Notes: generated from the sequence alone by a model not told the origin. Counted from the stretch's first letter, positions 875-61,944 are shown. The stretch is DNA of 64,000 bases from an uncultured Gammaproteobacteria bacterium (GCA_964474445.1 CAYYSJ010000005.1:17835-81834); one strand, 5' to 3'. Numbers and translations: made by a program.

Positions 875-2491
875 CTATTTTGATGCTGATAATTTTTCTA
901 TAAATTCATGTGCAACTGTTGGTGATGTGATAAGTGGTGCGTTATACCGGACCGCCATTTGTCTTGTGAATTGCCCATCTGTTTTTTCCTTGTTTGTTGT
1001 TATTTTCCCCGTTGGGATATTAATAATGACGTCAAACCGATTTGCTTCTAATAAGTCCTTGAGATTTGGTTTGAGATGAGGTTGCGACACTTTGTTCACT
1101 GCAACTGATTCGATGTGATGTGCTTTCAAGAATTTATGGGTTTTATACGTAGCATAGAGTCGGTATTTAAGGTCTGATAAGCGTTTAATATCTGGAAGCA
1201 TTTTTATTTTATTCTCTCTTTTTCCAATACTGACTAATGCCGTTCTTTCTGCTCGTTGTGCTAGTCTCATTTGCAGTGTATAGAGCTCAATAAACCCAGC
1301 TGAAGCATTTTGATTGAACGCAGTGCTTGCCATAAAGGTTGCAAGTTTTTCTTCAAAAATCGTATTAGGAGTTTCAAGAGCTATCATATGAACGTTTCCT
1401 TTATATAACTTAAGAGTAACTTTTCCTGTCACCTTCTTATTCACATTATCAACATATGCATTCAAATCGTCCATGAGAGGCTCGTACCATAATCCTCCGT
1501 AACATAAGTATGCCCATTTTGTATCAATCAGAGATTTGAATTCATTTTCTGCCCGTGTTGAAACATATGCTTCCAGTTGCTTGTGGGCAGTAACAATAAC
1601 TTCCGCAGCAGGGGCTTCAAAAATATCACGAATTTTTAGTCCAACTACCCTATCTTCAATATGAATATTAGTGCCAACACCATGCTTTGATCCTATGGTG
1701 TTTAATTTCATAATAAGATCTGCAAGTTTCATTTGTTGTCCATTGAGAGCAACAGGAAGACCTTTCACAAATTCAAGATCAACAATTTCTGATGTGTCTG
1801 GAGCTTCCTCTGGAAGTTTGTTGATTTGAAGAATTTTCTCAAGTGGAGCAACGAGTGCAGGATTTTCTATTTCTCCCCCTTCTCCTGAGATTCCCCACAT
1901 ATTGTCATCGTATGAATATGGCTTATCTTTTGTTTGGCTTACTGGAATACCGTGTTTTTTTGCGTAGTCTATTTCTTCATCTCTTCCCATATTCCACTCT
2001 CGTACTGGTGCAATAATTTTCATGTCAGGATTGAGAGCAAGAATCGTTCCCTCAATTCTCACCTGGTCATTCCCTTTGCCCGTGCATCCATGTGCAATAC
2101 AGTCTGCCCCTTCTTGCTCTGCAATTTTGACTGCCCATTTTGCGAGCAGTGGTCTTCCAAGAGGTGTTGCAAGACGATATTCTTGTTGATAAGAGGCATT
2201 TGCTTTGATTCCTTTTGCAATATACTCTTGTGCAAATTCATCTTTTGCATCGATAACAAATGCTTTCACAGCACCAAGTTTGAGTGCTTTTTTCTTGATG
2301 ACATCTAAATCATCTGCAATTTGACCAATATCAATAGTTAGTGCAATAACTTCTGCTTTGTATTCTTCATGAATCCATTTGAGCATGACTGATGTGTCCA
2401 GACCACCGGAATAGAGGAGAACAACTTTATTGACCTCACCTTTTCGGCCTTCGTAGGAGGAAACTTTTACGTATTCTGTTTTTTTCTTCAT
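875..2491 (-). CDS. argG: Argininosuccinate synthase with a C-terminal CarB-type MGS-like (allosteric) domain fusion
   Basis: N-terminal PP-loop VVLLYSGGLDTSV and ArgG-wide similarity over about 400 aa. The extra roughly 130 C-terminal residues (YRLYATYKTHKFLKAHHIESVAVNKVSQPHLKPNLKDLLEANRFDVIINIPTGK...RQMAVRYNAPLITS) match the MGS-like allosteric domain of the carbamoyl-phosphate synthase large subunit. Confidence 0.8.
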   Translation of the reverse strand: MKKKTEYVKVSSYEGRKGEVNKVVLLYSGGLDTSVMLKWIHEEYKAEVIALTIDIGQIADDLDVIKKKALKLGAVKAFVIDAKDEFAQEYIAKGIKANASYQQEYRLATPLGRPLLAKWAVKIAEQEGADCIAHGCTGKGNDQVRIEGTILALNPDMKIIAPVREWNMGRDEEIDYAKKHGIPVSQTKDKPYSYDDNMWGISGEGGEIENPALVAPLEKILQINKLPEEAPDTSEIVDLEFVKGLPVALNGQQMKLADLIMKLNTIGSKHGVGTNIHIEDRVVGLKIRDIFEAPAAEVIVTAHKQLEAYVSTRAENEFKSLIDTKWAYLCYGGLWYEPLMDDLNAYVDNVNKKVTGKVTLKLYKGNVHMIALETPNTIFEEKLATFMASTAFNQNASAGFIELYTLQMRLAQRAERTALVSIGKRENKIKMLPDIKRLSDLKYRLYATYKTHKFLKAHHIESVAVNKVSQPHLKPNLKDLLEANRFDVIINIPTGKITTNKEKTDGQFTRQMAVRYNAPLITSPTVAHEFIEKLSASK

Positions 2492-2677: not shown

Positions 2678-3535
2678 TTAATTTTTTAGAGATTTTTCAG
2701 TAGCAACGACTAAATTCTCCATGAGACACGCAACATTCACTGGTCCTACTCCTCCCGGGATTGGCGTATACCATCCTGCTTTGTCCTTTATATCTTCTTC
2801 ATCGTAATCTCCCACAAATGTTCCCTCTTCTGTCCTACTCAGACCAATCCCAACAAGAATTGCATCCTTTTTTATCATGTCAGAGGTAAGGACATGTGGC
2901 TTGCCAACAGCGGTGATAATGATATCTGCTTGTTGTGTGATTTCTGATGGGTGAGGAGTTTTTGAGTCAATAACAGTCACATCTTCTCCACGTTTTTTTA
3001 GGAGCTCTATAACAGGTAGTCCTCCAGTTTTTCCTTTCCCCATGACAACAATCTTTTTTGATGCAAGCCATTCATTGAAAGACTCTCCTGTTTTCTCTGT
3101 CTCTTTTATCATAGGGATTTCCAAAACTTTCATGACTGCATTTGCAATAGGGATAATAAATTGGGAATTCGGAACAAATCCGTCAACATCTTTGTTTGGA
3201 TGAATTTCTTTAATCAGTGCTTCATAGTCAATATGGGAAGGTACAGGGAGTTGAAGGATAAGACCGTGAACATCTGTTTTGTCTTGTAAAAATGCGATGC
3301 ACTCTTTAAGTGTTTGCTGGTTAACAGAGTCTGGAAAATTGTAAACAGAAACAACTGCGCCAATTTGTTTGGCCATTTTTTCTTTTTGTGCAATATATGA
3401 AGAAATTGCTGGATCCTCTCCTACTCGAATAACTGCCATGTGAGGTTGAACCTGAAAATCTTGATCAAGCTCATCAACACGATGTAAAAGGTCTGCAAGA
3501 ATATAATTTGAGATTGTCTTGCCGTCAATAATCAT
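2678..3535 (-). CDS. folD: Bifunctional methylenetetrahydrofolate dehydrogenase/cyclohydrolase
   Basis: Full-length similarity to FolD: GKTIS start and PIPGGVGPVNVACLMENL C-terminal motif. Confidence 0.85.
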   Translation of the reverse strand: MIIDGKTISNYILADLLHRVDELDQDFQVQPHMAVIRVGEDPAISSYIAQKEKMAKQIGAVVSVYNFPDSVNQQTLKECIAFLQDKTDVHGLILQLPVPSHIDYEALIKEIHPNKDVDGFVPNSQFIIPIANAVMKVLEIPMIKETEKTGESFNEWLASKKIVVMGKGKTGGLPVIELLKKRGEDVTVIDSKTPHPSEITQQADIIITAVGKPHVLTSDMIKKDAILVGIGLSRTEEGTFVGDYDEEDIKDKAGWYTPIPGGVGPVNVACLMENLVVATEKSLKN

Positions 3536-3568
3536 AGAGGTATTATACCAGATTGAACTCAGAAGTCG

Positions 3569-3967
3569 TTACTGCTTTTTGCGATTTCTCTGTTTTCTTC
3601 TTTCGTTAGTTATTCGTTGAGAGAGAATGTTATAACGACGTGCAGTATCAGGAGAAGATAAAACATAACTTCTGCTTCTGGGAGAAAATTCTAAACCATC
3701 AGGATAGGTATCCCCAAATTGTGAAGCAGTAAAGTCCTCTCTTTCTCCATCTGGAAGCTCATTAATATAGTGAGACCGCATGTGAGCAAAAGCTGATCCT
3801 TCCAGTGACGCTCGAAGGAGTCTTCCGCCTAGCCTTTTTTGAGCGGCTGCAGCAACAACAGCACATTGCCCATACATTGGATTTTCAGAAGTCCAATTGT
3901 TAGGATCTGAGGATGTATCTTGTTGACATGCTTGTGTTAGCGTTGTGGTAAACTCTTCTTTTCTCAT
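3569..3967 (-). CDS. Hypothetical protein (132 aa), last gene of a six-gene small-protein operon
   Basis: Intact ORF, adjacent to the upstream gene. Conserved-looking NWTSENPMYGQCAVVAAAAQKRLGG segment. Arg/Lys-rich tail. Confidence 0.4.
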   Translation of the reverse strand: MRKEEFTTTLTQACQQDTSSDPNNWTSENPMYGQCAVVAAAAQKRLGGRLLRASLEGSAFAHMRSHYINELPDGEREDFTASQFGDTYPDGLEFSPRSRSYVLSSPDTARRYNILSQRITNERRKQRNRKKQ

Positions 3968-3969
3968 TC

Positions 3970-4209
3970 TTATGAAGCTCTTCGCATTCTGCTTTTTGCT
4001 GCCTCCCTTGCAATTTCATAATGGACTCCTAATAGGAGTGGATTCATTGCCGCAATACCATTTGATTCTGCTTCTCTCATGAATTTTCTTGACTTGTGTA
4101 AAAAGAGACCTTTATTTGGCCTCAGCTCATCCTCATATGCTGCTCGTCTTGCTTTTGCAAGAAATGCTTCTTGTTCTGGAGTAAGTTGATACTCTTGTTC
4201 TCTTAGCAT
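3970..4209 (-). CDS. Hypothetical small protein (79 aa)
   Basis: ORF tightly packed in an operon (3-5 nt gaps). Charged, helical composition. Confidence 0.35.
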   Translation of the reverse strand: MLREQEYQLTPEQEAFLAKARRAAYEDELRPNKGLFLHKSRKFMREAESNGIAAMNPLLLGVHYEIAREAAKSRMRRAS

Positions 4210-4214
4210 AGTAA

Positions 4215-4553
4215 TTATCCCAAATCTTCCAATGGCATTTTTGCAAGAAGCCTTCTTTTTTGTTTGGTTCCTTCTATATCTCTTATCGCTTCTACATCTG
4301 ATGTTGTTTCCACCTCACGATAATCAAATGCCCTCTCAAGACGGTCTCTTTCTGCTATGGCGCTTTGTCTTCTCTGCTCAACCTCTTCCCTTTTTACATC
4401 ACTAAGAGGTGAAGAAAGTTGCAGACGAGTTCGTCGAAGTTCTTCTGTTACAGAACGAAATTCTTTTTGCAGTCTCATAAGTCGTCCTCTTTCTTGAAAA
4501 TCAATAAGATTCATAGCTAGGTAGCCTTTACGTACCCTTTCTTTCGTAGCCAC
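4215..4553 (-). CDS. Hypothetical coiled-coil protein (112 aa; alternative start at 4514 gives 99 aa)
   Basis: ORF with a strongly Arg/Glu-rich heptad-like sequence. The alternative ATG at 4514 lies 2 nt after the upstream stop codon. Confidence 0.35.
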   Translation of the reverse strand: MATKERVRKGYLAMNLIDFQERGRLMRLQKEFRSVTEELRRTRLQLSSPLSDVKREEVEQRRQSAIAERDRLERAFDYREVETTSDVEAIRDIEGTKQKRRLLAKMPLEDLG

Positions 4554-4948
4554 AGTTGTGTTCGTTTATATTGTTCATCATCATGTTCTCTTCGTTCTTG
4601 TCCATCAGGTCCTGTAGCTGTTCTCGTTGTTAGTTTATCTAAAACTTCTCCTTTTGCCTTTCGTATTGCATTCAATTCTTTTGCCACGTGCTCTAATGTA
4701 ACCGGAGTTTCTCTGGTGCCTTGAAATGCAGAGACTCGTCTTTTGAGTTCTGCTCCATCTAAAACGTGATGACCATTCGCAGTTGAAATGCGTCGTTGTT
4801 GCTCAAGATCGTCATACTCTTTCCTCAGTGCTTGTTCACGTCTTCGTTGGTCAAGATCAATAGGCTGAGTATTGGCAGTACTTTCGTTATGAGAAGGAGT
4901 GCTTTGTGGATGTTCGATTTTTTTTTGTTCAAAGTCAATAATTGTCAT
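4517..4948 (-). CDS. Hypothetical protein (143 aa)
   Basis: ORF in an operon. Charged low-complexity sequence with no recognised domain. Confidence 0.35.
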   Translation of the reverse strand: MTIIDFEQKKIEHPQSTPSHNESTANTQPIDLDQRRREQALRKEYDDLEQQRRISTANGHHVLDGAELKRRVSAFQGTRETPVTLEHVAKELNAIRKAKGEVLDKLTTRTATGPDGQERREHDDEQYKRTQLWLRKKGYVKAT

Positions 4949-4951
4949 AGG

Positions 4952-5509
4952 TTAGCTTGCTCTTCTTCTTGGACCTTTTTTGGGCCCTTCGGTTGGGCCA
5001 TCAAATGGTTTCCAGTCAAAAGTTCCTCTTCGTACCGCTTGTATTGTATTTGCTACAGCAATTGCTGCCATTTCGTGATCCCATGCGTCATTGTGATATG
5101 GCTCTCCCCTTTTCATGAGTCTTTCCCTTTCTGCTTTCATCTTGATAAATGCTTCTGGGTCAGTGCGATATGCTCTTCTTGCTCGTGCGGTATCTGGATG
5201 AATAATCTCATCAACAGGATTTAAATTTCCTCCAATATGAATATCTTCACAAACAGAGATTACGTTATACGGATGATCTGCTGCTTTTGCAGAGAGACCT
5301 TTTACTTGGACTTCAACACCAAAAGGGCTCACATGATGTACGTGCAATGTTTTATCTTTGCCATTGCATACATGCACTCCTGGAAATTGACACTCATATC
5401 CATCTCTTCTTCTAATTTCCTCTTTTGCTGCGTCCGTTAATGTGCGTTTTTCTATTGGATATAATGTATATTTTTCGCCTTGGTCTTTTCTTACATCTGG
5501 TTTTCCCAT
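4952..5509 (-). CDS. HNH endonuclease-domain protein
   Basis: Motif CQFPGVHVC...LHVHHV...NVISVCEDIH fits the Cys...Cys / HH / N...C..H HNH nuclease pattern. Confidence 0.5.
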   Translation of the reverse strand: MGKPDVRKDQGEKYTLYPIEKRTLTDAAKEEIRRRDGYECQFPGVHVCNGKDKTLHVHHVSPFGVEVQVKGLSAKAADHPYNVISVCEDIHIGGNLNPVDEIIHPDTARARRAYRTDPEAFIKMKAERERLMKRGEPYHNDAWDHEMAAIAVANTIQAVRRGTFDWKPFDGPTEGPKKGPRRRAS

Positions 5510-6294
5510 CGTCTTCTCCTTCCTATATCTTCTTTTCCAAATACTTTTCCCGTGGCAGCTTCTACCTCATTGCTGTATCCTTTTTTTGCCATTGGACCAA
5601 GAATGTCGTTATACATAAAAAAAAGCAGCTCTTGTTGAGCTGCTGGATTAGAGGCAAGAAGGCCGAAAAGGCTTTCCCCTGGCTCAAGCAACCAGGTGAA
5701 CGCATTAGTGAGATGTTCTCTTAATGCTGTGTCAAATTCTTGAGGAGAAAGATTTGCATAATGGGGCAAGGTCTTTAGGGTTTTTACAATAAATCCTCTG
5801 TCAAAAATGGTGAGTGGTTGGGCTTTATCAAGAACACGGGTCATAAAGCCTTCTTTATCCATGCGTCCTTCACGATGTTCAAATCTGTCATCTAAGTCTT
5901 CTACATAGACTCTGTCCTGTTGGGAAAAAAGTGGAAAAACATCACTTTCCTTGTATTCCTGTTCATATGCATCATATTGAGCGCGAAGTTGGTCATAGTC
6001 TTGGCGGCCTCTTGATAAATCTCCATGAAGGTTTGCTTCTCCACTATCATGCAGGTCTGCCATAATATCTACTTCGTTCAAGTTAATTGCTTTCGAAAGG
6101 TGAGGATACTTTTGCCTTATGGAGCCAGAAAGTCTTTTCATGCCATTGACGTGATCAAGGACTGTTTCTTGTCTTCCTTGGTTATCTGTTATACCGTTGT
6201 AGCGAATAATTTGAGGAAGAATAGTACTCCTCACACGAGCAAGTGAGGCTTTAAGAGTAGGACTAGAGGCTAATGCTTCGGCTCTCTGAACCAT
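5491..6294 (-). CDS. HD-domain phosphohydrolase (YfbR-like 5'-deoxynucleotidase fold)
   Basis: VLDHVNGM ... IMADLHDSGEANLHGDL matches the H...HD...D metal-binding signature of the HD superfamily. Confidence 0.45.
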   Translation of the reverse strand: MVQRAEALASSPTLKASLARVRSTILPQIIRYNGITDNQGRQETVLDHVNGMKRLSGSIRQKYPHLSKAINLNEVDIMADLHDSGEANLHGDLSRGRQDYDQLRAQYDAYEQEYKESDVFPLFSQQDRVYVEDLDDRFEHREGRMDKEGFMTRVLDKAQPLTIFDRGFIVKTLKTLPHYANLSPQEFDTALREHLTNAFTWLLEPGESLFGLLASNPAAQQELLFFMYNDILGPMAKKGYSNEVEAATGKVFGKEDIGRRRRWENQM

Positions 6295-6446
6295 ATAATA
6301 GTGTGCTATAATACGCTTTGATCTTCAAAAATTCAGAGAGAATGGTTGATCGTATCTTGAAAACACTAGACATAAACATTTACTCGAGTAAGCATTTGCA
6401 TGTACTCATGTTAATATTAACTCAAGTCTAATGGTAATTGTAATTA

Positions 6447-6863
6447 GTGTCAATGGATCATACTATGTCAAATTCAGCTAAAAAAATTGGTGGATATACA
6501 AAATACCAGCGAGAGAAAAAGGGGTATTCTCTCAATGAGTTTGCCCGTCTTTGTAATTTTACCTCATCGTTCTTGCTTAAGCTTGAACGAGGAGATTACC
6601 ATAATGTGAAATTTGATGTTATTGAGAAGATATCGAATGCGCTGGATATGTCTATTGAGGATTTTCTTATTAAGTGTCAAATTACTTCTGGCAAAAAAAA
6701 ACTAGACAGTCTTGATTATTACTTTAAAGAATCATACCAATTTCCGGAAGAAGCTATTAGTGATTTAAAGCTTTTTATTCAATTGCTTCAGAAAAAATAC
6801 AAAACGCAAATTAAAGAGTTAAAAGAAGCGCACAAAAAATATTGGGAAGAGAAAACAAAGTAG
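6447..6863 (+). CDS. XRE-family (Cro/C1-type) helix-turn-helix transcriptional regulator
   Basis: N-terminal YSLNEFARLCNFTSSFLLKLERG...ISNALDMSIEDFL is a canonical XRE HTH. Divergent from the HD/HNH operon. Confidence 0.65.
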   Translation: MSMDHTMSNSAKKIGGYTKYQREKKGYSLNEFARLCNFTSSFLLKLERGDYHNVKFDVIEKISNALDMSIEDFLIKCQITSGKKKLDSLDYYFKESYQFPEEAISDLKLFIQLLQKKYKTQIKELKEAHKKYWEEKTK

Positions 6864-6897
6864 TTTTTGGAGTTTCCCTCACAGCTTTTGAGAGTTA

Positions 6898-9453
6898 CTA
6901 CACTTTTTCTTCAACACACGTTGCAGAGGCAATCTTATCAGCATCTTTGGAGAATCGCATGAGAATGACTCCTTGTGTTGCTCGTGAAAGTCGTGGAATT
7001 GAAACAGCGTCAAGTTGCACAACTTGACCTTTCTTTGAAGTCATAATCACTGTTTTGCAACTTGCTGGCATAATTTGTGAGACAACAACTTTTCCAGTCT
7101 TTTCTGTCACATTTGCTACTTTCACTCCCATGCCTCCTCTACTCTGTCCTCGGAATTCTGATGCTAAGGTTTTCTTTCCAAGACCATTTTCCATAATAGT
7201 GATAAGCACTGCTTCTTTATCATCTTTATTGATAATATCCATACTAATCACTTCGTCACTTGCTGGAATTTTAATACCTCTCACACCTTGTGTTGCACGG
7301 CCCATTGGTCTCACATCTTCCTCTGAAAAGCGGATTGCTTTTCCTTCTTTAGTGACAAGAAGAATAACATCCTCTCCAGTTGTTAAGTTACTCCAGACTA
7401 ATTCATCTTTTGTCTCAAGTTTTATTGCAACAATACCAGAGCGTCTGATATTTGTGAATTCTGAGACTGCAGATTTTTTAACAGTTCCATTTCGAGTTGT
7501 AAGGAAGACGTATTTCCCTTCAATTTTTCCTGAGTAGCTGATAAATGATTCAACTCGTTCCCCTGCTTCAATATTCAGAAGATTAACAATAGCTGTGCCT
7601 TTACTTGTTCTGCTACTTTCTGCAATTTCATATGCTTTCAATTGATAGACTTTTCCTTTATTGGTGAAGAACAAAATATTGTCATGTGTTTGGGCATAGC
7701 GAATTGCCATAATTTCATCTTCATCTTTCGTAGTCATGCCTTTCACTCCTTTGCCCCCTCTATTTTGCGTTGAGAATGAGGAGGTTGATTGTCTTTTAAT
7801 ATATCCTGTTGAGGTGATGGTGATAACCGTTGGTTCATTTGGAATAAGATCCTCTTCTGAGAATTCATCGACTTTTCCTTTGTATACTCTGGTTCGTCTT
7901 GCATCACCATATTTTTCTTTGAGTTGCTTCAATTCTTCTCCAATCACTTTCAAAATCTTTTCAGAATGTGCAAGTAAATCTTCCAAATATGCGATGGTTT
8001 CCTTGATCATTAACAACTCATCTTCAATCTTTTGTCGCTCCAGTGCTGCAAGTCTTCGAAGCTGCATGTCCAAAATAGCTGTTGATTGAATTTCTGAAAG
8101 CTTGAATTTCTCCATCAAGTTCTTCTTTGCTTCTTCTTGGTCTTTTGAGGCACGAATTGTTGCAATAACAGCATCAATATGGTCAACAGCAATCTTTAAT
8201 CCTTCCAAAATATGCAGTCGTGCTTGTGCCTGTCTCAATTCGAACTCTGAACGTCTAGTGACAACAATGAATCGGTGTCTTAGGTATTCTTCAAGAATTG
8301 CTTTGAGGGTAAGTGTCTGTGGTGTTCCATCAACAAGTGCAACAACATTTCCAGGGAATGATGTTTGCAAGGATGTATTTTTGAAAAGATTGTTTAATAC
8401 TTTCTTTGGTGCAGCATCCCTTTTTAATTCAACAACAACTCGAAGACCATGTCTATCTGATTCATCCCTCAGATCGGTAATACCTTCAATCTTTTTCTCT
8501 TTTGCTAAATCAGCAATGCGGCTGACTAAGAGTGCTTTGTTTACTTGGTATGGAAGCTCGGTAATAATAATTGCTGATTTTCCTTGTCCAATATCTTCAA
8601 TTTCTGCTTTTCCTCGAATAACAATCTTGCCTTTTCCTGTTGTGTAAAGATTTCGAATTTCTTGAATATCATAAATTGCACCAGCTGTTGGAAAATCAGG
8701 GCCTTTGACGTACTCTAACAACTCATCAACAGTAATGTCAGTTTGGACGTTGACGCGTAACTTACTTTCCTGTGTCAGAGCTTCTGCAGGGAGGACTGCT
8801 CCTTCTCCACTACTCTCTTTACCCGCAAGTGGGACTGGAGTATCTTTGGCAATTTTTGTTTTGGCAATCATTGCCTCAAGTGCATCAATTACTTCAGTTA
8901 AATTGTGTGGAGGGATTTTTGTTGCCATACCAACAGCAATTCCCTCTGCTCCCATCAGCAACAGATTTGGTAATTTTGCAGGAAGATAGAGTGGCTCTTG
9001 CAGTGTGTTATCAAAATTTCCTTTTGTTTCAACAGTTTCTTTCTCAAGGTCATACAGCATTTCAGCAGTAATTGCTGCCATTCGAGCTTCTGTGTAACGC
9101 ATTGCCGCTGGTGGATCGCCATCAAGTGAACCGAAATTTCCTTGGCCATCTACTAGAGGATATCTCATTGAGAAATTTTGAGCTAAACGAACCAAAGCAT
9201 CATAAATTGGCATGTCTCCATGTGGGTGGTATTTACCCATCACTTCTCCAACAATTTTTGCAGATTTTGAATACTTTGCAGAATGGTACAGACTCATTTC
9301 ATGCATTGCGTACAAAATTCTTCTGTGGACTGGCTTTAGACCGTCTCGTACATCAGGAAGTGCACGATCGACAATAACAGACATTGCGTAATCTAAATAC
9401 GCACGTCGCATCTCTTGTGTCAGCTCTGTTTTTTGTAATTTACCAATTTCCAT
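6898..9453 (-). CDS. gyrA: DNA gyrase subunit A
   Basis: 851 aa with a full-length GyrA signature ([28 protein letters not shown]) and C-terminal beta-pinwheel repeats. Confidence 0.95.
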
Positions 9454-9459
9454 AATGGA

Positions 9460-10002
9460 TTATTTGGAGAAGCCCTCTTCGTTGTATCGGGCGATACATT
9501 CGTGGACAATCTTTTTTGCTTCCTCTACATCTCCCCATCCCAGCACTTTAGTTGTGCCCGGCTTTTTGAGATCTTTGTAGTGGGCAAAATGGAATTCAAT
9601 TTTTTGTTTCCATCTTTTTGGCAGATCATCAAGCGAATTGATTGCATCTCCTGTATTTCGATCATCATCTGGAACACACACAATTTTGTAATCCATTTCT
9701 CCATCATCTTCAAAATTGAAAATGCCGATGATTTTTCCTTTTACAAATACTCCTGTTGGGATTGGTTCATGGCAGATCATTAACACATCTAATTCATCAC
9801 CATCTGTGTCTTTGGTTGCTGGAATGAAGCCGTAGTTTACTGGTTTTGGAAACACATCTGGTTCAACGCGGTCCAACATGAAGATGCCATGTTCACGGTC
9901 GTATTCGATTTTGAGTGAGGATCCTTGAGGAATATCAATAATAGTATTGACCATTCCATTATCAACATCACCTGGTGTAAGAATCTTATTAAAGTCTGGC
10001 AT
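9460..10002 (-). CDS. ppa: Inorganic pyrophosphatase (family I)
   Basis: DGDELDVLMI and a KIVCVPDDD-type Asp cluster. Size 180 aa. Confidence 0.9.
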   Translation of the reverse strand: MPDFNKILTPGDVDNGMVNTIIDIPQGSSLKIEYDREHGIFMLDRVEPDVFPKPVNYGFIPATKDTDGDELDVLMICHEPIPTGVFVKGKIIGIFNFEDDGEMDYKIVCVPDDDRNTGDAINSLDDLPKRWKQKIEFHFAHYKDLKKPGTTKVLGWGDVEEAKKIVHECIARYNEEGFSK

Positions 10003-21296: not shown

Positions 21297-22466
21297 ATGA
21301 GGAAGTTGTTCTTTATTGATTATGCATCACTGTTTCTGTTTTCTTTTGTTGTCACAATTACTGTGACGACATTTATCTATCCTCCCAGTAACCGTATGGA
21401 TTTTAGTATTTATCTTCTTGTTACAAAAGTTGCGCTTTTGCATAAATCGCTCTATCCATTATTTATTGACGGAGTTCTCTTTCCATATACTCACCCAACA
21501 AGTCTTACTCCATTTTTCTTTCCCTTTTTATTTCTCTCCCCTTCTCTTGCCGCAAGTGTATGGAATGCTCTTTCATTAGTGTGTTTGATTAGTGGCATCT
21601 TTTTTGTGATACGAAGTGTTCACCCGGTAAAACTTTCAACAATGCTTCTTATCCTTTCAAGTGTTCTTTTATTAGAACCTGTAAGAGAAAGTTTTCTTTT
21701 TGGTCAGAATAATTGTGTTGTATTATTGTTTGTGTTACTAGCATTTCTTTGTTCTAGGAAAAACAAATTTTCCTATCAAATCATAAGTGGTATATGTATT
21801 GGTATTGCCGCTTCTTTGAAATTATTTCCACTTTTTCTTCTTGTCTATTTTTTACTAAAAAAACAGTGGGTTAGTCTTATGGTGAGTCTTTTGATTTTTG
21901 TTTTTTTCCTACTCCTTGGAACATTTGGTCATGTTTCCTATATAGGGGAATACATGCAGTATGCGTTTGGTGTGATGGATTCTTCCCGTGTCCTCCCCGG
22001 TGATTACTCTTTATCATCATTACTATTTCTCTTTTTCCCTATGCCTTCTCTTCTGCGAATGATTTGTGTTAGTCTTTTCTCTATGCTGTTTATTGCAGTG
22101 TCTTTTTTTATTTGGAAAAAAGGAAGAAATGATGATCTGTCTGACTTTCTTTTTTTTAGTAGTATACTTGCTGTTACAATTCTTATGATCACACCACTAG
22201 CATGGGTGCATCATCTTGTCTTTCTTATTCCGTTTTGTCTGGGTCTTTTTCTCAAAGCACTCGAAACATCAGGCATACAAAGTAAGGTTATTTTTCTTGT
22301 CGCGTTTCTTCTCATATTTGTCAATTGGGAAGACTTTGTTATTTTTTTGCAAACACATGGAGCTGGATATATTCCGTTATTGTATTTTCATGCGTTATTT
22401 GGTTTGGGAGTGGTAATAATTGGAGAGCTTCTTTTACTTTCGTTTCAAAAGTTTGAAAAGAAGTAG
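21297..22466 (+). CDS. Polytopic membrane protein, probable GT-C glycosyltransferase (DUF2029/GT87-like)
   Basis: About 11 TM helices. Motifs GQNNCVVLL, GIAASLKLFPLFLL and PLAWVHHLVF resemble the DUF2029 (GT87) family. Confidence 0.4.
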   Translation: MRKLFFIDYASLFLFSFVVTITVTTFIYPPSNRMDFSIYLLVTKVALLHKSLYPLFIDGVLFPYTHPTSLTPFFFPFLFLSPSLAASVWNALSLVCLISGIFFVIRSVHPVKLSTMLLILSSVLLLEPVRESFLFGQNNCVVLLFVLLAFLCSRKNKFSYQIISGICIGIAASLKLFPLFLLVYFLLKKQWVSLMVSLLIFVFFLLLGTFGHVSYIGEYMQYAFGVMDSSRVLPGDYSLSSLLFLFFPMPSLLRMICVSLFSMLFIAVSFFIWKKGRNDDLSDFLFFSSILAVTILMITPLAWVHHLVFLIPFCLGLFLKALETSGIQSKVIFLVAFLLIFVNWEDFVIFLQTHGAGYIPLLYFHALFGLGVVIIGELLLLSFQKFEKK

Positions 22467-24689
22467 ACTTACGCTAAGTGGTGGTAAGGCAAGGAGTATC
22501 CACGCTAAATTAATCGTTATTGTTTTTTTCACTGGTGCAACATGGATTGCAGCAACAGTCGTTTTTTGTGCAGTATCAAAGGTTGTTCGCACGGTCCCTG
22601 AACCTCCTTGAGCAGTTGGTCCATTGGTGTTTTCAGTGATTGGATTTTGGTTGTTTGATGCGGTTGGTGTTGTTGCAAGTTGCGCTGGCTGCTGTGGTGC
22701 AGAACTTGGTGATGGAGATTGGGTTGGTGTTGCAATACTTTGTGTAGTTGTTTGTTGCGCATTTGTCTGTGTATTGGTATTGTTTTGTGGTGTTTGCGTA
22801 TGTTGTTTTGTCTGGCCCGGTGTCACAAAGTCGCCTACCCATTTCCCAAATACATTAACAACAGTAACAAACAGCTTGCCCTTTCCAACAATATTGTCAT
22901 TAACAAAGTTAACAATGTTCGCAAGAATTTTTGCATCCCCTGTTTGAACAGTGACATTTCCTCCGGTATTTTCATTTGCAATATTGCCACCAGTATTGGC
23001 AGAAAGAGTAAGTTTGTTGCCAACTGTACCTGTATTTTTTTGTTGTGTTGTTGTTTGGGAATTTTGCGTTGTTTGTGCGTTATTAGTACTCCCTGCTCCA
23101 TTTCCATTATTACTTGCACTTACATTTCCATTTGCATCACTCGTAATCGTAAGACCATTTGATGCAACAGTAGATCCACTGGGTGCCCCGATCAGCTGAC
23201 CAATCCACTGCCCTGCTTTGTTAACAAGGACAAGCCATAAGTTACCGTCTGAAATATTGGAGTTTGCGATATTCAACACATGTGAATCCGCGGACGCTTG
23301 TCCACTATTTACCGTTGTTGTACCACCCGTATTTCGTGTGGCATCATTTCCTCCTGTTGTACTAGTCGTTTGCAGATTGTTGTCGATGACAGCGTCATTT
23401 GTTTGAGAAAGAAGATTATGTGACATCTGATTTGCAACCGAAGTATTGCTACTGCCTGCTCCGTTTCCTGCATTACTTAAGGATGTATTTGTGTTGTTGC
23501 AGCCATTTGTGCAGGGATTAAACGAATCCAACACGCTTTGTGGCAGGATGATATCTCCCTGTAAGTTTCCATAAATATTCACAACACCGTAGACAACATT
23601 TCCTGAAGCGATATTATTGTTCAAAAATGTTAATGAGTTTGCGGATACATTGGCATTGCCTGTTTGAATCCCTGTATTTCCTCCCGTATTCTTGTTTGAG
23701 AGATTGTCTCCAGAATTTGCCGTGAGAACTAAATTATTTCCAACACTTCCATCATTGGTTTGTGTGAGGGAGGATTGAGACGTTTTGTTTGCTTGAGAAG
23801 TGTTAGTACTCCCTGCCCCATTGCCGATATTTTTCACTATTTCTCCTGGAACTGTTGTTGAACATCCACTAATACAATGTGCTCCAAAATCCAAGACAAG
23901 ATCACCAGTATGGTTGTCTGCAATATTGAATTCTGCAACTGCTACACCATCAACGTTCGTGTTTTGCGCGGTAATGATTGTTCCGGAAACATTTGCATCG
24001 CCTGTTTTGGTTGCTGTATCTCCAACATTTTCAGAAGCATTGTTTTTGCCTGTGACAGATGCTTGTGAAAGTGTTTGGGCAGAACTTGCAGTATTTGTTT
24101 GGACAGCACTCGTTGTATTGTTTGTTGATGTCGATGTTGCATTGGTAGATTGTGCTCCGTTTCCTGCATTTGTTGCATTTGATGATGATGGTGTTGGTGA
24201 GGCATCATGTGTTGTTCCAATTCCTGATGGGGACGTCGCTCCATTATTGTTTCCAGTTGTTGTACTGGTATTTTGTGGATTTGCGTTACCTGTTGTCACG
24301 GCGTTTGTCCCTGCTGGTGCAGAAGTTGGTGTGGGAGATGTAGAAACTGTTGGATCCCAATGAGGATCATTTTGCTGTGGATTCCCTCCAGAATTTACAC
24401 TTGGACTTTGTGTAGGGGTAGAAGTAGTTGGGGTATGTTCGTGAGGAGGATTGTTTGTAGTATTGTTCGTGTTACTTGTAGAGGTTTGTTGTTGCGGTGA
24501 TGGTGTTTGAGAAGTGGAAGGTACAGATGGAGCTGCTGGGGCGCTTGGTGCTGTTGGAGCACTGGGTGGTGTTTGTATCGTTGCTGCATGGATAGGAAGC
24601 GTGTTAAAAAGAATCATGCAGAGAATCAGTATGCCTGTGAAGAATTTTTTTAGACTGATTTCTCTATATTGTTTTATTTTATGTTTCAT
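22434..24689 (-). CDS. Secreted/surface Asn-Thr-Gly-rich tandem-repeat protein (751 aa) with a C-terminal hydrophobic anchor
   Basis: N-terminal signal peptide. Pro/Ser/Thr-rich linker. Three approximately 100-aa repeats (GNGAGS.N...NTGGN..V.TG.A...). C-terminus LAWILLALPPLSVSLLLFKLLKRK (TM plus basic tail). Confidence 0.6.
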   Translation of the reverse strand: MKHKIKQYREISLKKFFTGILILCMILFNTLPIHAATIQTPPSAPTAPSAPAAPSVPSTSQTPSPQQQTSTSNTNNTTNNPPHEHTPTTSTPTQSPSVNSGGNPQQNDPHWDPTVSTSPTPTSAPAGTNAVTTGNANPQNTSTTTGNNNGATSPSGIGTTHDASPTPSSSNATNAGNGAQSTNATSTSTNNTTSAVQTNTASSAQTLSQASVTGKNNASENVGDTATKTGDANVSGTIITAQNTNVDGVAVAEFNIADNHTGDLVLDFGAHCISGCSTTVPGEIVKNIGNGAGSTNTSQANKTSQSSLTQTNDGSVGNNLVLTANSGDNLSNKNTGGNTGIQTGNANVSANSLTFLNNNIASGNVVYGVVNIYGNLQGDIILPQSVLDSFNPCTNGCNNTNTSLSNAGNGAGSSNTSVANQMSHNLLSQTNDAVIDNNLQTTSTTGGNDATRNTGGTTTVNSGQASADSHVLNIANSNISDGNLWLVLVNKAGQWIGQLIGAPSGSTVASNGLTITSDANGNVSASNNGNGAGSTNNAQTTQNSQTTTQQKNTGTVGNKLTLSANTGGNIANENTGGNVTVQTGDAKILANIVNFVNDNIVGKGKLFVTVVNVFGKWVGDFVTPGQTKQHTQTPQNNTNTQTNAQQTTTQSIATPTQSPSPSSAPQQPAQLATTPTASNNQNPITENTNGPTAQGGSGTVRTTFDTAQKTTVAAIHVAPVKKTITINLAWILLALPPLSVSLLLFKLLKRK

Positions 24690-24785: not shown

Positions 24786-26024
24786 TTATAGATGCATAGA
24801 TCCAAGAGCATTACCCATATCAAAGGTAAAATTGAGATCTGTTCCTCCTGGAAGCTGCAATCCACCTGGCCCAAAGGTATTTACATTAGCATTGTTTCGT
24901 ACCGTTGTATCACTCCCTGAATGTCCAGTCACGACGTCGACTGGATCACCTCGGAATAGATTTCCTGTATTTCTGTTTGCATTGTTTTTACCGGTACTTC
25001 CTTTGCTGGTAACATCGTTTGATATCGCTGCGTTTCCATCTTGGAAGGCAGAAAGTTCGTCTGTCGAACGATGGGTAATATTGTTCTCAGATTGTGCTCC
25101 GTTTCCAGAGATTCTTCCAAAGACACCATCATCTCGAAGACATCCACAGTTACCTAAGTCTGCACTATTAAAGTTTGCTAATGTTCTGACACCAGTGCGG
25201 TTGGTTGCATTGCCTGTATCAACAGTAACGTTGCCATCGGTATTTTCATTTGCGTTATTTTTTCCTGTTGTTGCATCTGCATGAACTTTATTGCGAACAT
25301 CGGCTTGGTTGTCTTGTACCAAACTGACGGAGTTGTTACGGTTGAGATCTATCTGATTAGAAGACTCTGCACCGTTTCCATGGATACGCAATTCAGCTCC
25401 TGTACCATTTCCATTTCCTCCATCATTTCCCATTCTTGCCACATTGGCGTTCACTGCTGTACTCAGCGCTGTGTCATTGGCTGCATGTCCTGTAAGGACT
25501 GACACATCTCCTCCTGTATTCCTATCTGCATTGTTGTGACCTGTCCTTGCGTTTGCAGTGACATCATTCGTCACGTTTGCTTCATTGTTTTGGAAAAGAG
25601 ATGTATTACGGGTTGTGTCAACAGAAGCATTATTGTTGGAATTAAAACCATTACCAGAAAGGGTAACGGTTGATTGTCCATCTCCGTTGCAGTTACAGTT
25701 TCCTACATCTGCAACATTTGCATTTGCTCGTGTTCTAACATCAGTCGTGTTACGAGCATTTCCTGTATCAATACTGACATTCCCTCCCGTATTTTCATTT
25801 GCTCTATTTCCTCCTGTTGTTGCATCTGAATGGACGTTATTGGAAATGTCTGCGTTATTGTCTTGGACAACTGTTGTCTTTTTGTTGGAAGTGGTATCTA
25901 CAGAATTATTCGATTCTGCTCCATTTCCGTTGATGCGTAATGTGGAATCTGCGAATACCATTGGCGTTAATGCATTAAGTAAAAGAGTTCCACTTGCGAA
26001 CATCGTCAGTAATTGTTTTTGCAT
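24786..26024 (-). CDS. Secreted Asn-Thr-Gly-rich tandem-repeat protein (412 aa), paralogous repeat type to the upstream gene
   Basis: Signal peptide. About 3.5 approximately 100-aa repeats (NGNGAES.N...TTG.N.ANENTGGNV..DTGNA...) with conserved CNC/CGC pairs. Confidence 0.6.
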   Translation of the reverse strand: MQKQLLTMFASGTLLLNALTPMVFADSTLRINGNGAESNNSVDTTSNKKTTVVQDNNADISNNVHSDATTGGNRANENTGGNVSIDTGNARNTTDVRTRANANVADVGNCNCNGDGQSTVTLSGNGFNSNNNASVDTTRNTSLFQNNEANVTNDVTANARTGHNNADRNTGGDVSVLTGHAANDTALSTAVNANVARMGNDGGNGNGTGAELRIHGNGAESSNQIDLNRNNSVSLVQDNQADVRNKVHADATTGKNNANENTDGNVTVDTGNATNRTGVRTLANFNSADLGNCGCLRDDGVFGRISGNGAQSENNITHRSTDELSAFQDGNAAISNDVTSKGSTGKNNANRNTGNLFRGDPVDVVTGHSGSDTTVRNNANVNTFGPGGLQLPGGTDLNFTFDMGNALGSMHL

Positions 26025-59649: not shown

Positions 59650-61944
59650 TTGTCTATGCAGGACTTTAAAAGTCGACGGCGAAGTAAAGGTATTTTTCAT
59701 ATTCTGCTCCACTTGATTCCGGGAATTGGTGGGAAATCTGATATTGAGCTACTCAGTACTCTTACAAAATATGCGTTTTTTGCACTCATTGGCCTTGTTG
59801 TTGTTGTTGTCTTTCTCTTTATTTGGTATGGCAAAGACTTGCCAACTCCAGGAAAATTAATTACCAGTAGTCTTACTGAATCAACAAGAATCTATGACCG
59901 AAAAGGCATCTTACTTTACTCAGTGTACAAGGATCAAAATAGAGCGTATGTGCAATTGCAAGATATCCCCAAAAACCTACAACATGCAACCATTGCCATT
60001 GAAGACAGGAATTTTTACCAAAATTCCGGATTCTCTATCAGAGGATATTTACGAGCGTTTGTTGGGATTATTACCCTTCGTGGGATTTCTGGAGGATCTA
60101 CACTTACCCAACAGTTAGTAAAAAATGTGTTGTTGCAAGATACCAGGCAAACAGTTACTCGTAAAATAAAAGAGCTCATTTTAGCAATTCAGGTCGATAA
60201 GAGGTATTCCAAAGATCAAATTTTAGAAATGTATTTAAATGATGTGCCATATGGTGGTGCAAATATTGGTGTTGAAGCTGCTGCTGAGGCATATTTTGGA
60301 AAGCATGCGAAAGATTTGGATGTTGCTGAATGTGCATTTCTTGCAGGTCTTCCTCAAGGACCAAGTCTCTACTCCCCTTTCAATGGTCATAAATATTATT
60401 TAGGAAGAAGTAAGAATGTGTTGCAGGCAATGACGGACGAAAATTATATTACCCAAAAACAAGCAGATGCTGCGTATAAAGAAATTCAAGGCATGACGTT
60501 CTCAGATACGGATAGGTCCATCAAAGCGCCACATTTTGTTATGTATATCAAGCAATTGGCAGCAAAACAATTTGGTGATGCAACAGTACAAAATGGAGGA
60601 CTGCAAATCTATACGACCCTTGATTATGACATTGAAAAACAGGCAGAACAGATTGTGAAAGATGAGGTTAGCAAATTAAAGGGATATCATGTGGCAAATG
60701 GTGCAGCAATGGTGATGGATCCAAAGACTGGACAAATTCTGGCAATGGTTGGAAATACCGATTATTTCGATACGACGGCGGATGGTAACTTTAATGATGC
60801 AGTTGATGCAAAAAGACAACCAGGATCATCCCTAAAACCTGTTATTTATGCAACAGGTCTCATGAAAGGATACACTGCAGCGACTACCTTTATGGATGTG
60901 AAGACTGATTTTCCAAGTGGAGATCCAACACATCCTACCTATACCCCGGTGAACTATGATGGCAAGTTTCATGGACCAATCCAAATGCGGTTTGCTCTGG
61001 GGAATTCTATGAATATTCCTGCTGTGAAGATGCTTGCGATGGTTGGTATTAAAGACGCAATGCAAACAGGTTATCAGATGGGAATCCAAAGTTGGGAGCC
61101 AACACAAGAAACAATTGCAAGTGTTGGACTATCACTTGTTTTAGGAGGACGAGAAACAACATTGTTAAATGAAATGACAGCATATAGTACCTTTGCAACA
61201 GGCGGTATTCGTCATGATCCAGTCTCAATCATGAAAATAACAGACAGTCATGGAAACACCCTCTTTACCAACACAGATAAACCAGGAGTAAAAGTATTGT
61301 CACCTGATGTCTCCTTCATTATTTCTCATATGCTTTTGGATAACAACGCAAGAACTTTGGAATTTGGACCAAGTAGTTATTTAGTGATTCCTGGAAAGAC
61401 TGTGAGTGTAAAGACGGGAACCACCGATGATAAACGGGATAACTGGACCATGGGCTATACCCCCTCCTCTGTTGTTGGAGTATGGGTTGGAAATAATGAT
61501 AATACGCCAATGAATCAGGCCATTGCCTCAGGGGTGACCGGTGCTTCTCCAATCTGGAATAGGATTATGACTGCAGTTCTTAAAGGCAAAGCAGATGAAC
61601 AACCCCAAAAGCCAGATAATGTGAATGCTGTTTCGATTGATGCTCTCTTTGGAGGGTTGCCCGTGGATGGACAGCCAACACGAGTTGAGTACTTTATTAA
61701 AGGGACAGAGCCAACAAGCAAATCCTCTGTGTATCAACAAAAAGATGGGAAAACGTATTATATAGTGAGAGAGAGTGATCCTGTCTCAACAGATGGACAG
61801 AATCGCTGGCAACAAGGGATAGATGCGTGGATTCATGAAAACCATTCAGCAGCAGATTACCAATGGTACCCACCAGATGATTTACTCAAGTCTTTGGGGA
61901 TTACCCCAGCACCGAGTATTACACCTACCCCCACTCCACACTAG
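59650..61944 (+). CDS. Class A penicillin-binding protein (PBP1A; glycosyltransferase + transpeptidase)
   Basis: N-terminal TM. GT51 motif IEDRNFYQNSGFS. TP motifs SSLKP, SMN and KTGTT. Confidence 0.85.
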   Translation: MSMQDFKSRRRSKGIFHILLHLIPGIGGKSDIELLSTLTKYAFFALIGLVVVVVFLFIWYGKDLPTPGKLITSSLTESTRIYDRKGILLYSVYKDQNRAYVQLQDIPKNLQHATIAIEDRNFYQNSGFSIRGYLRAFVGIITLRGISGGSTLTQQLVKNVLLQDTRQTVTRKIKELILAIQVDKRYSKDQILEMYLNDVPYGGANIGVEAAAEAYFGKHAKDLDVAECAFLAGLPQGPSLYSPFNGHKYYLGRSKNVLQAMTDENYITQKQADAAYKEIQGMTFSDTDRSIKAPHFVMYIKQLAAKQFGDATVQNGGLQIYTTLDYDIEKQAEQIVKDEVSKLKGYHVANGAAMVMDPKTGQILAMVGNTDYFDTTADGNFNDAVDAKRQPGSSLKPVIYATGLMKGYTAATTFMDVKTDFPSGDPTHPTYTPVNYDGKFHGPIQMRFALGNSMNIPAVKMLAMVGIKDAMQTGYQMGIQSWEPTQETIASVGLSLVLGGRETTLLNEMTAYSTFATGGIRHDPVSIMKITDSHGNTLFTNTDKPGVKVLSPDVSFIISHMLLDNNARTLEFGPSSYLVIPGKTVSVKTGTTDDKRDNWTMGYTPSSVVGVWVGNNDNTPMNQAIASGVTGASPIWNRIMTAVLKGKADEQPQKPDNVNAVSIDALFGGLPVDGQPTRVEYFIKGTEPTSKSSVYQQKDGKTYYIVRESDPVSTDGQNRWQQGIDAWIHENHSAADYQWYPPDDLLKSLGITPAPSITPTPTPH

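Follow-up and report, generated by a model that had tools for sequence, protein, structure and literature searches.

A seven-gene cassette was analysed in a stretch of 64,000 nucleotides from an uncultured Gammaproteobacteria bacterium (GCA_964474445.1 CAYYSJ010000005.1:17835-81834), the whole of which is referred to here as the window. The cassette lies between gyrA and folD and consists of a Cro/C1-type (XRE) regulator gene and six tightly packed genes read divergently from it, which encode a predicted HD-domain phosphohydrolase, a predicted HNH endonuclease, three small proteins (s143, s99 and s79) and a member of the YunG family. It is an accessory block, missing from the same junction in related genomes, and belongs to a rare family of about ten loci in which a conserved regulator is combined with swapped cargo. 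The cassette is tentatively interpreted, with a probability somewhat short of even, as a repressor-gated conflict module that combines a nuclease with nucleotide depletion and serves anti-phage defence or abortive infection, or else its own stabilisation by addiction.

The insertion between gyrA and folD

The genes of the cassette and its flanks, with product lengths in amino acids (aa), are as follows.

2678-3535, minus strand: folD, downstream of the six-gene block
3569-3967, minus strand: YunG-family protein, 132 aa
3970-4209, minus strand: s79, a small basic helical protein of 79 aa
4215-4514, minus strand: s99, 99 aa from the ATG at 4514 (112 aa, 4215-4553, with the GTG at 4553)
4517-4948, minus strand: s143, a small basic Arg/Glu-rich protein of 143 aa
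4952-5509, minus strand: HNH protein, 185 aa
5491-6294, minus strand: HD protein, 267 aa
6447-6863, plus strand: XRE regulator, 138 aa, GTG start, divergent from the six-gene block (6294..3569)
6898-9453, minus strand: gyrA, beyond the XRE gene, with its stop codon at 6898
about 3558-6897, about 3.34 kb: the inserted cassette, seven genes bounded by the gyrA stop codon and by the folD promoter, which is conserved

Relatives of the window were fetched via FolD. The closest genome record (L004; FolD 76% and GyrA 87% identical) and a second record (L005) are labelled as Gammaproteobacteria metagenome-assembled genomes, and a third (L006) as a Patescibacteria metagenome-assembled genome. In L004 the gene order is gyrB-ppa-gyrA-folD-argG, and the gap of 305 nt between gyrA and folD (9696-10000) holds only an unrelated coiled-coil-like open reading frame (ORF) of 69 aa. 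The slot is empty in L005, where gyrA abuts folD directly (3651/3652), and is occupied in L006 by one gene for a 215-aa SGNH/GDSL-hydrolase-like protein (9261-9908). Across the window and these three records, the gyrA|folD junction appears to be a variable slot of the lineage. Because the block is missing from this junction in L004, L005 and L006, the XRE gene and the six genes are regarded as an accessory insertion, in all appearance horizontally acquired. The first-pass annotation had raised the possibility that the block is variably present between folD and gyrA, and the comparison bears it out.

Similarity between the window and L004 restarts a short way ahead of the folD ATG, at TTCAATC..TGGTATAATAC. 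This point lies a few bases past the YunG stop codon and coincides with an extended -10 element of folD (TGGTATAAT, 3542-3550, minus strand), which is located 6 nt before the folD ATG, is kept in L004 (9987-10003), and appears to mark the host side of the insertion junction. The proximity of this element to the ATG (window 3533-3550) suggests a leaderless folD transcript. No direct or inverted repeats flank the cassette, no tRNA gene or Rfam element was found at it, and no integrase or recombinase was detected in the ORF list or in the repeat and tRNA scans. The composition of the operon is mildly atypical: its guanine-plus-cytosine content is 0.41, compared with 0.385 for the window, its tetranucleotide distance is within the top 5 of 123 compositional windows, and the ratio Arg/(Arg+Lys) is 0.53-0.77 in all six operon proteins versus 0.37 in other genes. 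The XRE protein is Lys-rich. Beside the cassette site, a 330-aa winged-helix-like ORF lies between folD and argG in L004 (11320-12312) and is not present in the window, where the corresponding gap is 187 nt (2492-2677); this difference is best described as a second indel.

All seven ORFs were found, in the ORF list and in the sequence, where the first-pass annotation had placed them, and its account of six tightly packed minus-strand genes with a divergent XRE gene, flanked by folD and gyrA, was confirmed in coordinates and spacing. Its view that the six genes form one operon-like block under the divergent regulator is likewise supported by spacing and orientation. The 19-nt overlap that it had given for the HD and HNH genes stands, and a GGAAGGAG ribosome-binding site lies within the 3' end of the HD gene. 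The overlap of 37 nt that it had also given is probably a longest-ORF artefact, and disappears because the start of s99 is set at the ATG at 4514, which lies 2 nt past the upstream stop codon. The resulting 99-aa product begins with MNLIDF, which lines up with residue 1 (MTIIPF) of a 97-aa homologue in locus L049, described below. After this choice of start, the remaining operon junctions are gaps of 2-5 nt. Because the XRE gene and all operon genes except that of the YunG-family protein have homologues in independent metagenomic contigs (hidden Markov model E-values of 1e-40 to 1e-86), and because the YunG-family protein has a Pfam match, the ORFs of the cassette are judged to be real genes and not chance ORFs.

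Related loci and cargo exchange

About ten loci are built on XRE homologues that are 47-75% identical, and the XRE gene is the element constant to all of them. The relatives of the regulator form eight clusters among 5.8 billion proteins (57-75% identity, 43 invariant columns). The divergent cargo and, where noted, the flanking genes are as follows.

Window: HD-HNH-s143-s99-s79-YunG, flanked by gyrA and folD
L049: HD-HNH-s99-s79-s143, flanked by a GIY-YIG gene and by obg, which follows s143
L051: HD-HNH, then a 600-aa MBL-fold protein and a weakly HAD-like protein of 261 aa
L055: HNH-s143-s79, then a 205-aa protein, without HD; flanked by dnaE and gatB
L057: HNH alone, adjoining secA
L060: 970-aa MBL-fold protein, homologous to the MBL-fold protein of L051
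L056: 344-aa protein with a marginal match to a restriction-fold toxin (E 0.024)
L081/82: protein of at least 299 aa with metallophosphoesterase-like motifs, seen by eye only
L058: protein of at least 314 aa, unassigned
L059 and L062: no divergent cargo seen on these short contigs; the XRE gene lies beside a transporter gene

Related cassettes thus occupy other chromosomal sites, those of L051, L056, L060 and L081/82 included, with shuffled cargo, which upholds the first-pass view of the block as a candidate mobile module. HNH recurs most often as cargo, in 5 of about 10 loci, and the MBL-fold cargo of L051 and L060 is MBL/RNase J-like. The small proteins co-occur with the HNH gene and not with the HD gene, and the YunG-family cargo is specific to the window cassette and was not found in the others. 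The regulator is more conserved (47-75%) than the cargo (36-41% for HD and 30-49% for HNH). Conflict systems typically keep their regulator and exchange their effectors in this way.

Several further features of these loci were recorded. A flanking protein of 440 or 452 aa, with no Pfam match, is encoded in both L051 (8092-9450) and L081 (463-1785); the two copies are 54% identical, the cargo of the two loci differs, and in both the end of this gene coincides exactly with the 3' end of XRE. It may be either a shared host flank or an eighth component of the cassette. In L049, a small stand-alone GIY-YIG nuclease gene (57-377; PF01541, 1.5e-15) lies just beyond the XRE gene and represents a second mobile-type nuclease at that site. 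The 205-aa protein of L055 (5665-6282) was considered by eye as a Rossmann protein resembling nucleoside 2-deoxyribosyltransferases or dNMP (deoxynucleoside monophosphate) N-hydrolases, which would put a further nucleotide-destroying enzyme in the place of HD; the idea was dropped as supported by no search. A sequence search of solved structures returned nothing for this protein, the cargo of L082, the HNH protein or the YunG-family protein.

The encoded proteins and the control region

Taken alone, the HD protein matched Pfam HD_3 with 15 bits, below the cut-off of 22.5 (E 0.023), and a word-indexed homologue search matched the protein itself only. An exhaustive search was therefore run on 1.84 billion representatives and yielded 18 relatives, two of which are close (P0002, 41%; P0003, 36%). 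In the alignment of these relatives R31, E43, H48, H82-D83, G85-E86, D156 and Q159 are invariant, and the metal-binding and catalytic signature H...HD..E...D of the YfbR type (H48, H82-D83, E86, D156) is intact. The family profile matched PDB sequences of human HDDC2 (3e-8), an oxetanocin-like protein (1xx7, 6e-6) and the E. coli 5'-deoxynucleotidase YfbR (1.3e-5), and also 3kh1, a predicted phosphohydrolase. PF13023 was matched by 14 of the 18 relatives (E<=0.01, best 2.1e-13; not compared with the gathering score) and the YfbR-like family PF12917 by 8. The invariant residues and profile matches place the protein in the HD_3/YfbR/HDDC2 clade, as a predicted 5'-(deoxy)nucleotidase or dNTPase (deoxynucleoside triphosphatase) and not a nuclease, so the two nucleases of the first-pass annotation are reduced to one. 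Hydrolysis of 5'-dNMPs is predicted from the family, and a dNTPase activity of the kind found in other small HD enzymes is just as possible.

The cassette HD protein shares its invariant motif and profile homology with HD_3 5'-deoxynucleotidases of the YfbR/HDDC2/YGK1 type (PF13023, PF12917), but is about 70-100 aa longer than these enzymes, with a conserved C-terminal helical extension and an Arg-rich tail. The YfbR/HDDC2/YGK1 enzymes are usually encoded by housekeeping genes, whereas the cassette gene is located in a mobile, repressor-gated operon beside an HNH nuclease gene. The more distant members of the HD family are encoded by stand-alone genes in ordinary contexts. A 5'-deoxynucleotidase of phage T5, Dmp, depletes dNMPs arising from DNA degradation in phage-host conflict (bioRxiv 10.1101/2024.12.20.629578). 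The resemblance is one of functional analogy only: Dmp acts alongside DNA breakdown, as is proposed here for the pairing of HD and HNH, but it is phage-encoded and serves the phage, whereas the cassette HD protein had no sequence match among 50,697 phage records.

The HNH protein consists of a CCCH zinc-finger HNH core (residues about 25-95), a family-specific helical extension (about 100-165) and an RRRAS tail. C40, C48, H58, H59, C87 and H91 are invariant in the family, N82 is present in 4 of 5 members, and the C-terminal extension of about 70 residues is conserved (H104, D106, R112, Y114 and others) and was recognised by no library. The window protein matched PHROG HNH families (8446, 8048 and 119) at 2.8e-6 to 2e-4. 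It had no Pfam match itself, and HNH_2 was matched by three of the five family members (best 5.5e-5). With catalytic and zinc-binding residues intact, the protein is assigned as an HNH (beta-beta-alpha-Me) endonuclease, its activity being predicted. A word-indexed homologue search yielded one relative, and a tblastn search of GenBank phages gave none. A 38-kb viral contig carries, as a free-standing gene, a full-length homologue with the C-terminal extension included (L068 7965-8474; 33% identity, E 1e-18). The cassette protein has the same CCCH zinc-finger core as free-standing phage HNH endonucleases (PHROG 8446, 8048 and 119; HNH_2), from which it differs in being chromosomal, paired with an XRE repressor and accompanied by three small helical proteins. 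AlphaFold2 models were unusable, with a predicted local distance difference test (pLDDT) score of 37 for the HNH protein (2-sequence alignment) and 47 for the YunG-family protein (single sequence).

Homologues of s143 are encoded in L055 (38%) and L049 (30%), and one of s99 in L049 (28%, with a conserved PLED-G C-terminus). Those of s79 in L055 (40%) and L049 (49%) share the motif GI..(H/N)PLLLG..Y, and s79 ends in an RRAS tail. Library searches gave no significant family match for any of the three proteins; s143 matched TIGR02574, a component of addiction modules, marginally (E 0.012). No relatives of s143 or s79 were found in viral contigs. The first-pass statement that none of the small proteins matches a known family is accurate for these three and fails for the 132-aa protein, which matched the YunG family described below. 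Paralogy of s143 and s99 was considered and rejected, as the hhalign probability was 3.7% and just a 9-residue N-terminal motif (MxIIxF) is common to both. Both proteins (4931-4948 and 4497-4514, minus strand) open with M-x-(I/L)-I-x-F-(E/Q/D), as do their homologues in L049 and L055, and this segment may be a shared docking peptide.

The 132-aa protein matched Pfam PF24585 (YunG) over residues 4-122 with E 1.8e-20 and 73.7 bits against a cut-off of 27, and is accordingly classed by profile as a YunG-family member with an added Arg/Lys-rich tail. Comparison with Bacillus and Paenarthrobacter homologues identified G-Q-C35, H66, N69 and D78 as invariant, a pattern that suggests a thiol enzyme and recalls a papain- or NlpC-like thiol hydrolase triad. 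Literature searches and plasmid contexts were uninformative as to YunG function. The family is scattered across Bacillus, Ralstonia and actinobacterial plasmids, where its members are annotated as 'hypothetical protein' (L063 and L064 are among the homologues).

Arg-rich C-termini are common to otherwise unrelated cargo in the cassettes of the window, L049, L051, L055 and L057. In the window the tails read ..GRRRRWENQM (HD), ..GPRRRAS (HNH), ..SRMRRAS (s79) and ..NERRKQRNRKKQ (YunG), and in L051 ..SRRRKIS (HD), ..KKRGRRTKAA (HNH), ..TRKRRKSA (MBL) and ..IRQRRKP (HAD-like). At least three Arg were present in the last 12 residues of 64% of 22 cassette proteins versus 2% of 51 other window proteins (Mann-Whitney p 1.5e-9), and 60 tail Arg were observed versus 27.7 expected from the composition of each protein (z 6.5); the homologues contributing to these statistics are not independent, and at least six unrelated families show the tail. 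The Bacillus YunG homologue and most stand-alone HD relatives do not carry it. Such a tail might bind nucleic acids, mark the proteins for degradation, or act as a targeting or export signal that the cargo has in common.

The regulator matched Pfam HTH_26 (PF13443) with 39 bits (cut-off 22) and HTH_3 (PF01381) with 36.7 bits (cut-off 23) over residues 19-75, by which it is classed as a Cro/C1-type helix-turn-helix (HTH) protein. Its C-terminal helical domain (about residues 85-135) is strongly conserved, and the GTG start fits the MSID/MSIE N-termini of its homologues. It also matched PHROG repressor families and, in PADLOC, 'Control_protein' models (PDLC03665, 4.7e-7) and the capH model (E 9e-6, nearly full model length), the PADLOC matches being attributable to generic HTH similarity. 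No relatives were found in IMG/VR. The intergenic region of 152 nt between the XRE and HD genes contains three 12-bp direct repeats, and the candidate control elements are as follows.

6378-6389, plus strand: repeat ATTTACTCGAGT, candidate operator
6400-6411, plus strand: repeat ATGTACTCATGT, candidate operator
6416-6427, plus strand: repeat ATTAACTCAAGT, candidate operator
6453-6448 and 6430-6425, minus strand: candidate operon promoter, TTGACA, 17 nt, TAGACT (consensus scan, 10 of 12 matches)
6295-6313, minus strand: element TATTATAGCACACTATTAT (TATtATAgCACACTAtTATATG), directly before the HD ATG; kept in the window, L049 (1025-1043) and L051 (9982-10000)

A search of the 64 kb with the pattern ATKWACTCRWGT gave 4 matches where 0.14 would be expected, and 3 of the 4 lie in this intergenic region; the count is partly circular, as the pattern was derived from those sites. 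The fourth match (ATTTACTCAAGT, 61880-61891) lies inside a gene for a class A penicillin-binding protein (59650-61944) and is probably due to chance. In most related loci a related motif, ATTGATTyrwrT, occurs at least twice, spaced by 16 or 22 nt and placed alike with respect to the XRE start, and the motif differs between loci where the regulator differs. Such variation along with the regulator is the behaviour expected of operators, and suggests that the repeats are bound by the XRE protein. The -35 hexamer of the candidate operon promoter lies inside XRE codons 1-3 and its -10 hexamer overlaps a 12-bp repeat; ATTGACA is invariant in six aligned loci. Promoter-like sites in the region did not exceed shuffle expectation, and the operon promoter is a consensus match only. 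An extended -10 for the XRE gene was read by eye, at consensus level, between repeats 2 and 3. The element directly before the HD start carries no Shine-Dalgarno sequence and may be an alternative -10 giving a near-leaderless mRNA.

Proposed function and alternative readings

Each part of the cassette appears to belong to, or diverge from, a known family (XRE, HD_3, HNH and YunG), and the assembly resembles C-protein-controlled nucleases and XRE-gated defence operons. In C-protein-controlled restriction-modification (R-M) systems, a small XRE-type controller with repeated operators is likewise located beside a nuclease gene, but the window cassette and the loci L049, L051, L055 and L057 contain no methyltransferase gene, the small HNH protein has no match among known restriction enzymes, and the cassette cargo is swapped among unrelated hydrolases. 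The CapH/CapP regulators of CBASS and other defence operons similarly include an XRE HTH protein with a C-terminal helical domain, divergent from an effector operon. The cassette differs from these in having no CapP-like metallopeptidase in or beside it and no CBASS genes, and the capH match is weak and largely to the HTH. The HNH fold is common to ZorE of Zorya II and PtuB of Septu, with marginal similarity (E 0.017 over 30 residues), and the partner proteins ZorAB and PtuA are missing from the cassette. In comparison with type II toxin-antitoxin systems, the XRE gene is divergent and not co-transcribed. Searches with PADLOC-DB v2.0.0 detected no known defence system; the window proteins gave only the generic HTH matches of the regulator and HNH matches at E 0.017, and neither HD, the small proteins and YunG nor the cargo of the related cassettes gave any match. 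Neither PADLOC nor literature searches returned a described system that combines an HD_3 nucleotidase, a phage-type HNH and three novel small proteins with swapped effectors and Arg tails. The first-pass proposal of a mobile, defence or toxin-type module thus holds in its first term, and the defence or toxin function is a hypothesis drawn from architecture and distribution to which PADLOC offers no match.

In the mechanism proposed for a conflict module, the XRE protein would bind the three 12-bp repeats between the divergent starts, overlapping the candidate promoters, and so keep the operon, and probably its own gene, shut. The six genes would be released as one translationally coupled message by a signal, for which invading foreign DNA and a failing supply of repressor are the most plausible candidates. 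The zinc-finger HNH endonuclease would then cut DNA, and the HD hydrolase, to judge from its family, would strip phosphate from dNMPs or deoxynucleoside triphosphates (dNTPs) so that released or pooled deoxynucleotides could not be reused. The three small Arg/Glu-rich proteins, because they co-occur with HNH and not with HD, are taken as putative modulators of the nuclease, whether as inhibitors, immunity proteins or DNA-targeting partners, and the YunG-family protein as an extra passenger, perhaps with thiol hydrolase activity. DNA damage and the loss of nucleotides would together halt DNA replication, with the repressor as the gate.

This interpretation is favoured by the insertion polymorphism, the unrelated sites, the conserved regulator with swapped cargo and the intact catalytic residues, and further by the phage homologue of HNH, the clustered operator-like repeats, the mildly atypical composition and the precedent of T5 Dmp. 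Several points weigh against it. The flanks are housekeeping genes without a defence-island neighbourhood, the cassette has no recognisable sensor or NTPase component, and PADLOC returned no significant defence-model match for any cassette protein. Most HD_3 enzymes are nucleotidases with housekeeping roles, and members of the wider HD family are, as noted, encoded by stand-alone genes in ordinary contexts. As a defence system, HNH with XRE alone, as in L057, would be minimal in the extreme; the promoters and operators are assigned from consensus matches only, the failed AlphaFold models leave the small proteins without structural support, and all functional claims so far are computational.

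Four other interpretations of the cassette, and one that extends it to export, were weighed. A nutritional operon, in which an inducible nuclease and a nucleotidase turn DNA into nucleosides for salvage in a reduced-genome nucleotide auxotroph, would agree with a recognisable cargo made up entirely of phosphoesterases acting on nucleic acids or nucleotides (HD_3, HNH, MBL/RNase J-like and the weak HAD match), with the classical role of HD_3 enzymes as 5'-deoxynucleotidases and the stand-alone HD relatives among ordinary genes, and with the Patescibacteria label of one relative. It is nevertheless considered unlikely: a salvage pathway should be more widespread than eight XRE clusters and two close HD relatives in billions of sequences, the block is not present in the closest relatives, occupies differing sites and has shuffled cargo, signal peptides were not seen by eye, and an HNH active inside the cell without regulation would turn on the DNA of the cell itself. 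In a selfish homing-type element, the phage-related HNH would drive insertion between conserved genes while the XRE protein silences it and the rest hitch-hikes without benefit to the host. Intergenic homing endonucleases in phages insert between genes in a similar manner; HNH is the most frequent cargo and the sole one in L057, its full-length viral homologue is free-standing, and the sites adjoin very conserved genes (gyrA, dnaE, secA, obg and gatB) with no integrase or repeats. Against this, the XRE loci without HNH (L056, L058, L060 and L081/82) indicate that HNH is not a universal engine of mobility, nearly any intergenic site in a small genome has housekeeping flanks and there is no target-site evidence, and the intact HD catalytic motifs suggest selection for function, so that homing is held to be quite unlikely.

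Decay of a prophage or satellite, leaving a repressor and a few early-region genes after deletion, had been suggested by the first-pass annotation. The divergent promoter and repeated operators of the XRE gene recall a cI/cro switch, the PHROG repressor matches and the phage-type HNH point the same way, and L004 has another winged-HTH-type accessory ORF nearby. The lack of an integrase, att repeats, a tRNA gene, and structural, replication or lysis genes does not fit such an origin, nor do the failure of XRE, HD, s79 and s143 to find relatives in viral collections and the recurrence of the same compact architecture with intact genes in several genomes, unlike random decay; a remnant is judged very unlikely. 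A Type IV-like restriction system would have a C-protein-like XRE controlling an HNH that cuts modified foreign DNA, with the HD protein disposing of non-canonical nucleotides. The match of XRE to R-M control-protein models and the lack of a methyltransferase would suit it, the conserved extra C-terminal domain of HNH could read DNA, and HD_3 relatives include unusual-nucleotide enzymes (1xx7). The XRE match is generic, however, no known modification-reading domain was detected, and no search gave similarity to McrA or other Type IV enzymes; the proposal is accorded little credence, and is a special case of a conflict module and not a true alternative to one.

The Arg tails on unrelated cargo (HD, HNH, s79, YunG, MBL-fold and HAD-like) allow one more speculative reading, that of a lineage-specific effector system with XRE as sensor and switch and the tail as a shared targeting or export signal. 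In that case the nuclease and nucleotidase would be passed to another cell, a neighbour or a host, and would either kill that cell or turn its DNA into nucleosides on which a nucleotide-auxotrophic episymbiont could draw. Some substrates of type IV secretion carry positively charged C-terminal signals (PMC10025392), and the export idea draws on this precedent. The 64-kb window contains no type IV secretion genes, and the reading is regarded as a long shot.

If the interpretation as a conflict module is correct and the cassette functional, it would be a previously undescribed repressor-gated cassette pairing a phage-type HNH with a dNMP- or dNTP-hydrolysing HD protein, would extend the known nucleotide-depletion strategies of bacterial immunity by a dephosphorylation step, and would show clearly how effectors can be exchanged around an XRE sensor that is itself conserved. 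The host group is poorly studied, uncultured and probably of reduced genome, and its mobile elements and immune systems are almost unknown. That unrelated cargo proteins share Arg-rich tails suggests a targeting step common to them, which is directly testable. The extreme rarity of the family, with about ten loci in public data, limits its generality.

Two further observations were made elsewhere in the window. Adjacent ORFs of 751 and 412 aa (22434-24689 and 24786-26024, minus strand), with no Pfam match at E<=1e-6, are located in an otherwise well-annotated housekeeping region. The argininosuccinate synthase encoded at 875-2491 (minus strand) carries a fused MGS-like domain at its C-terminus (PF02142, 1.7e-13); the arrangement is unusual, and L004 has the same 539-aa form.

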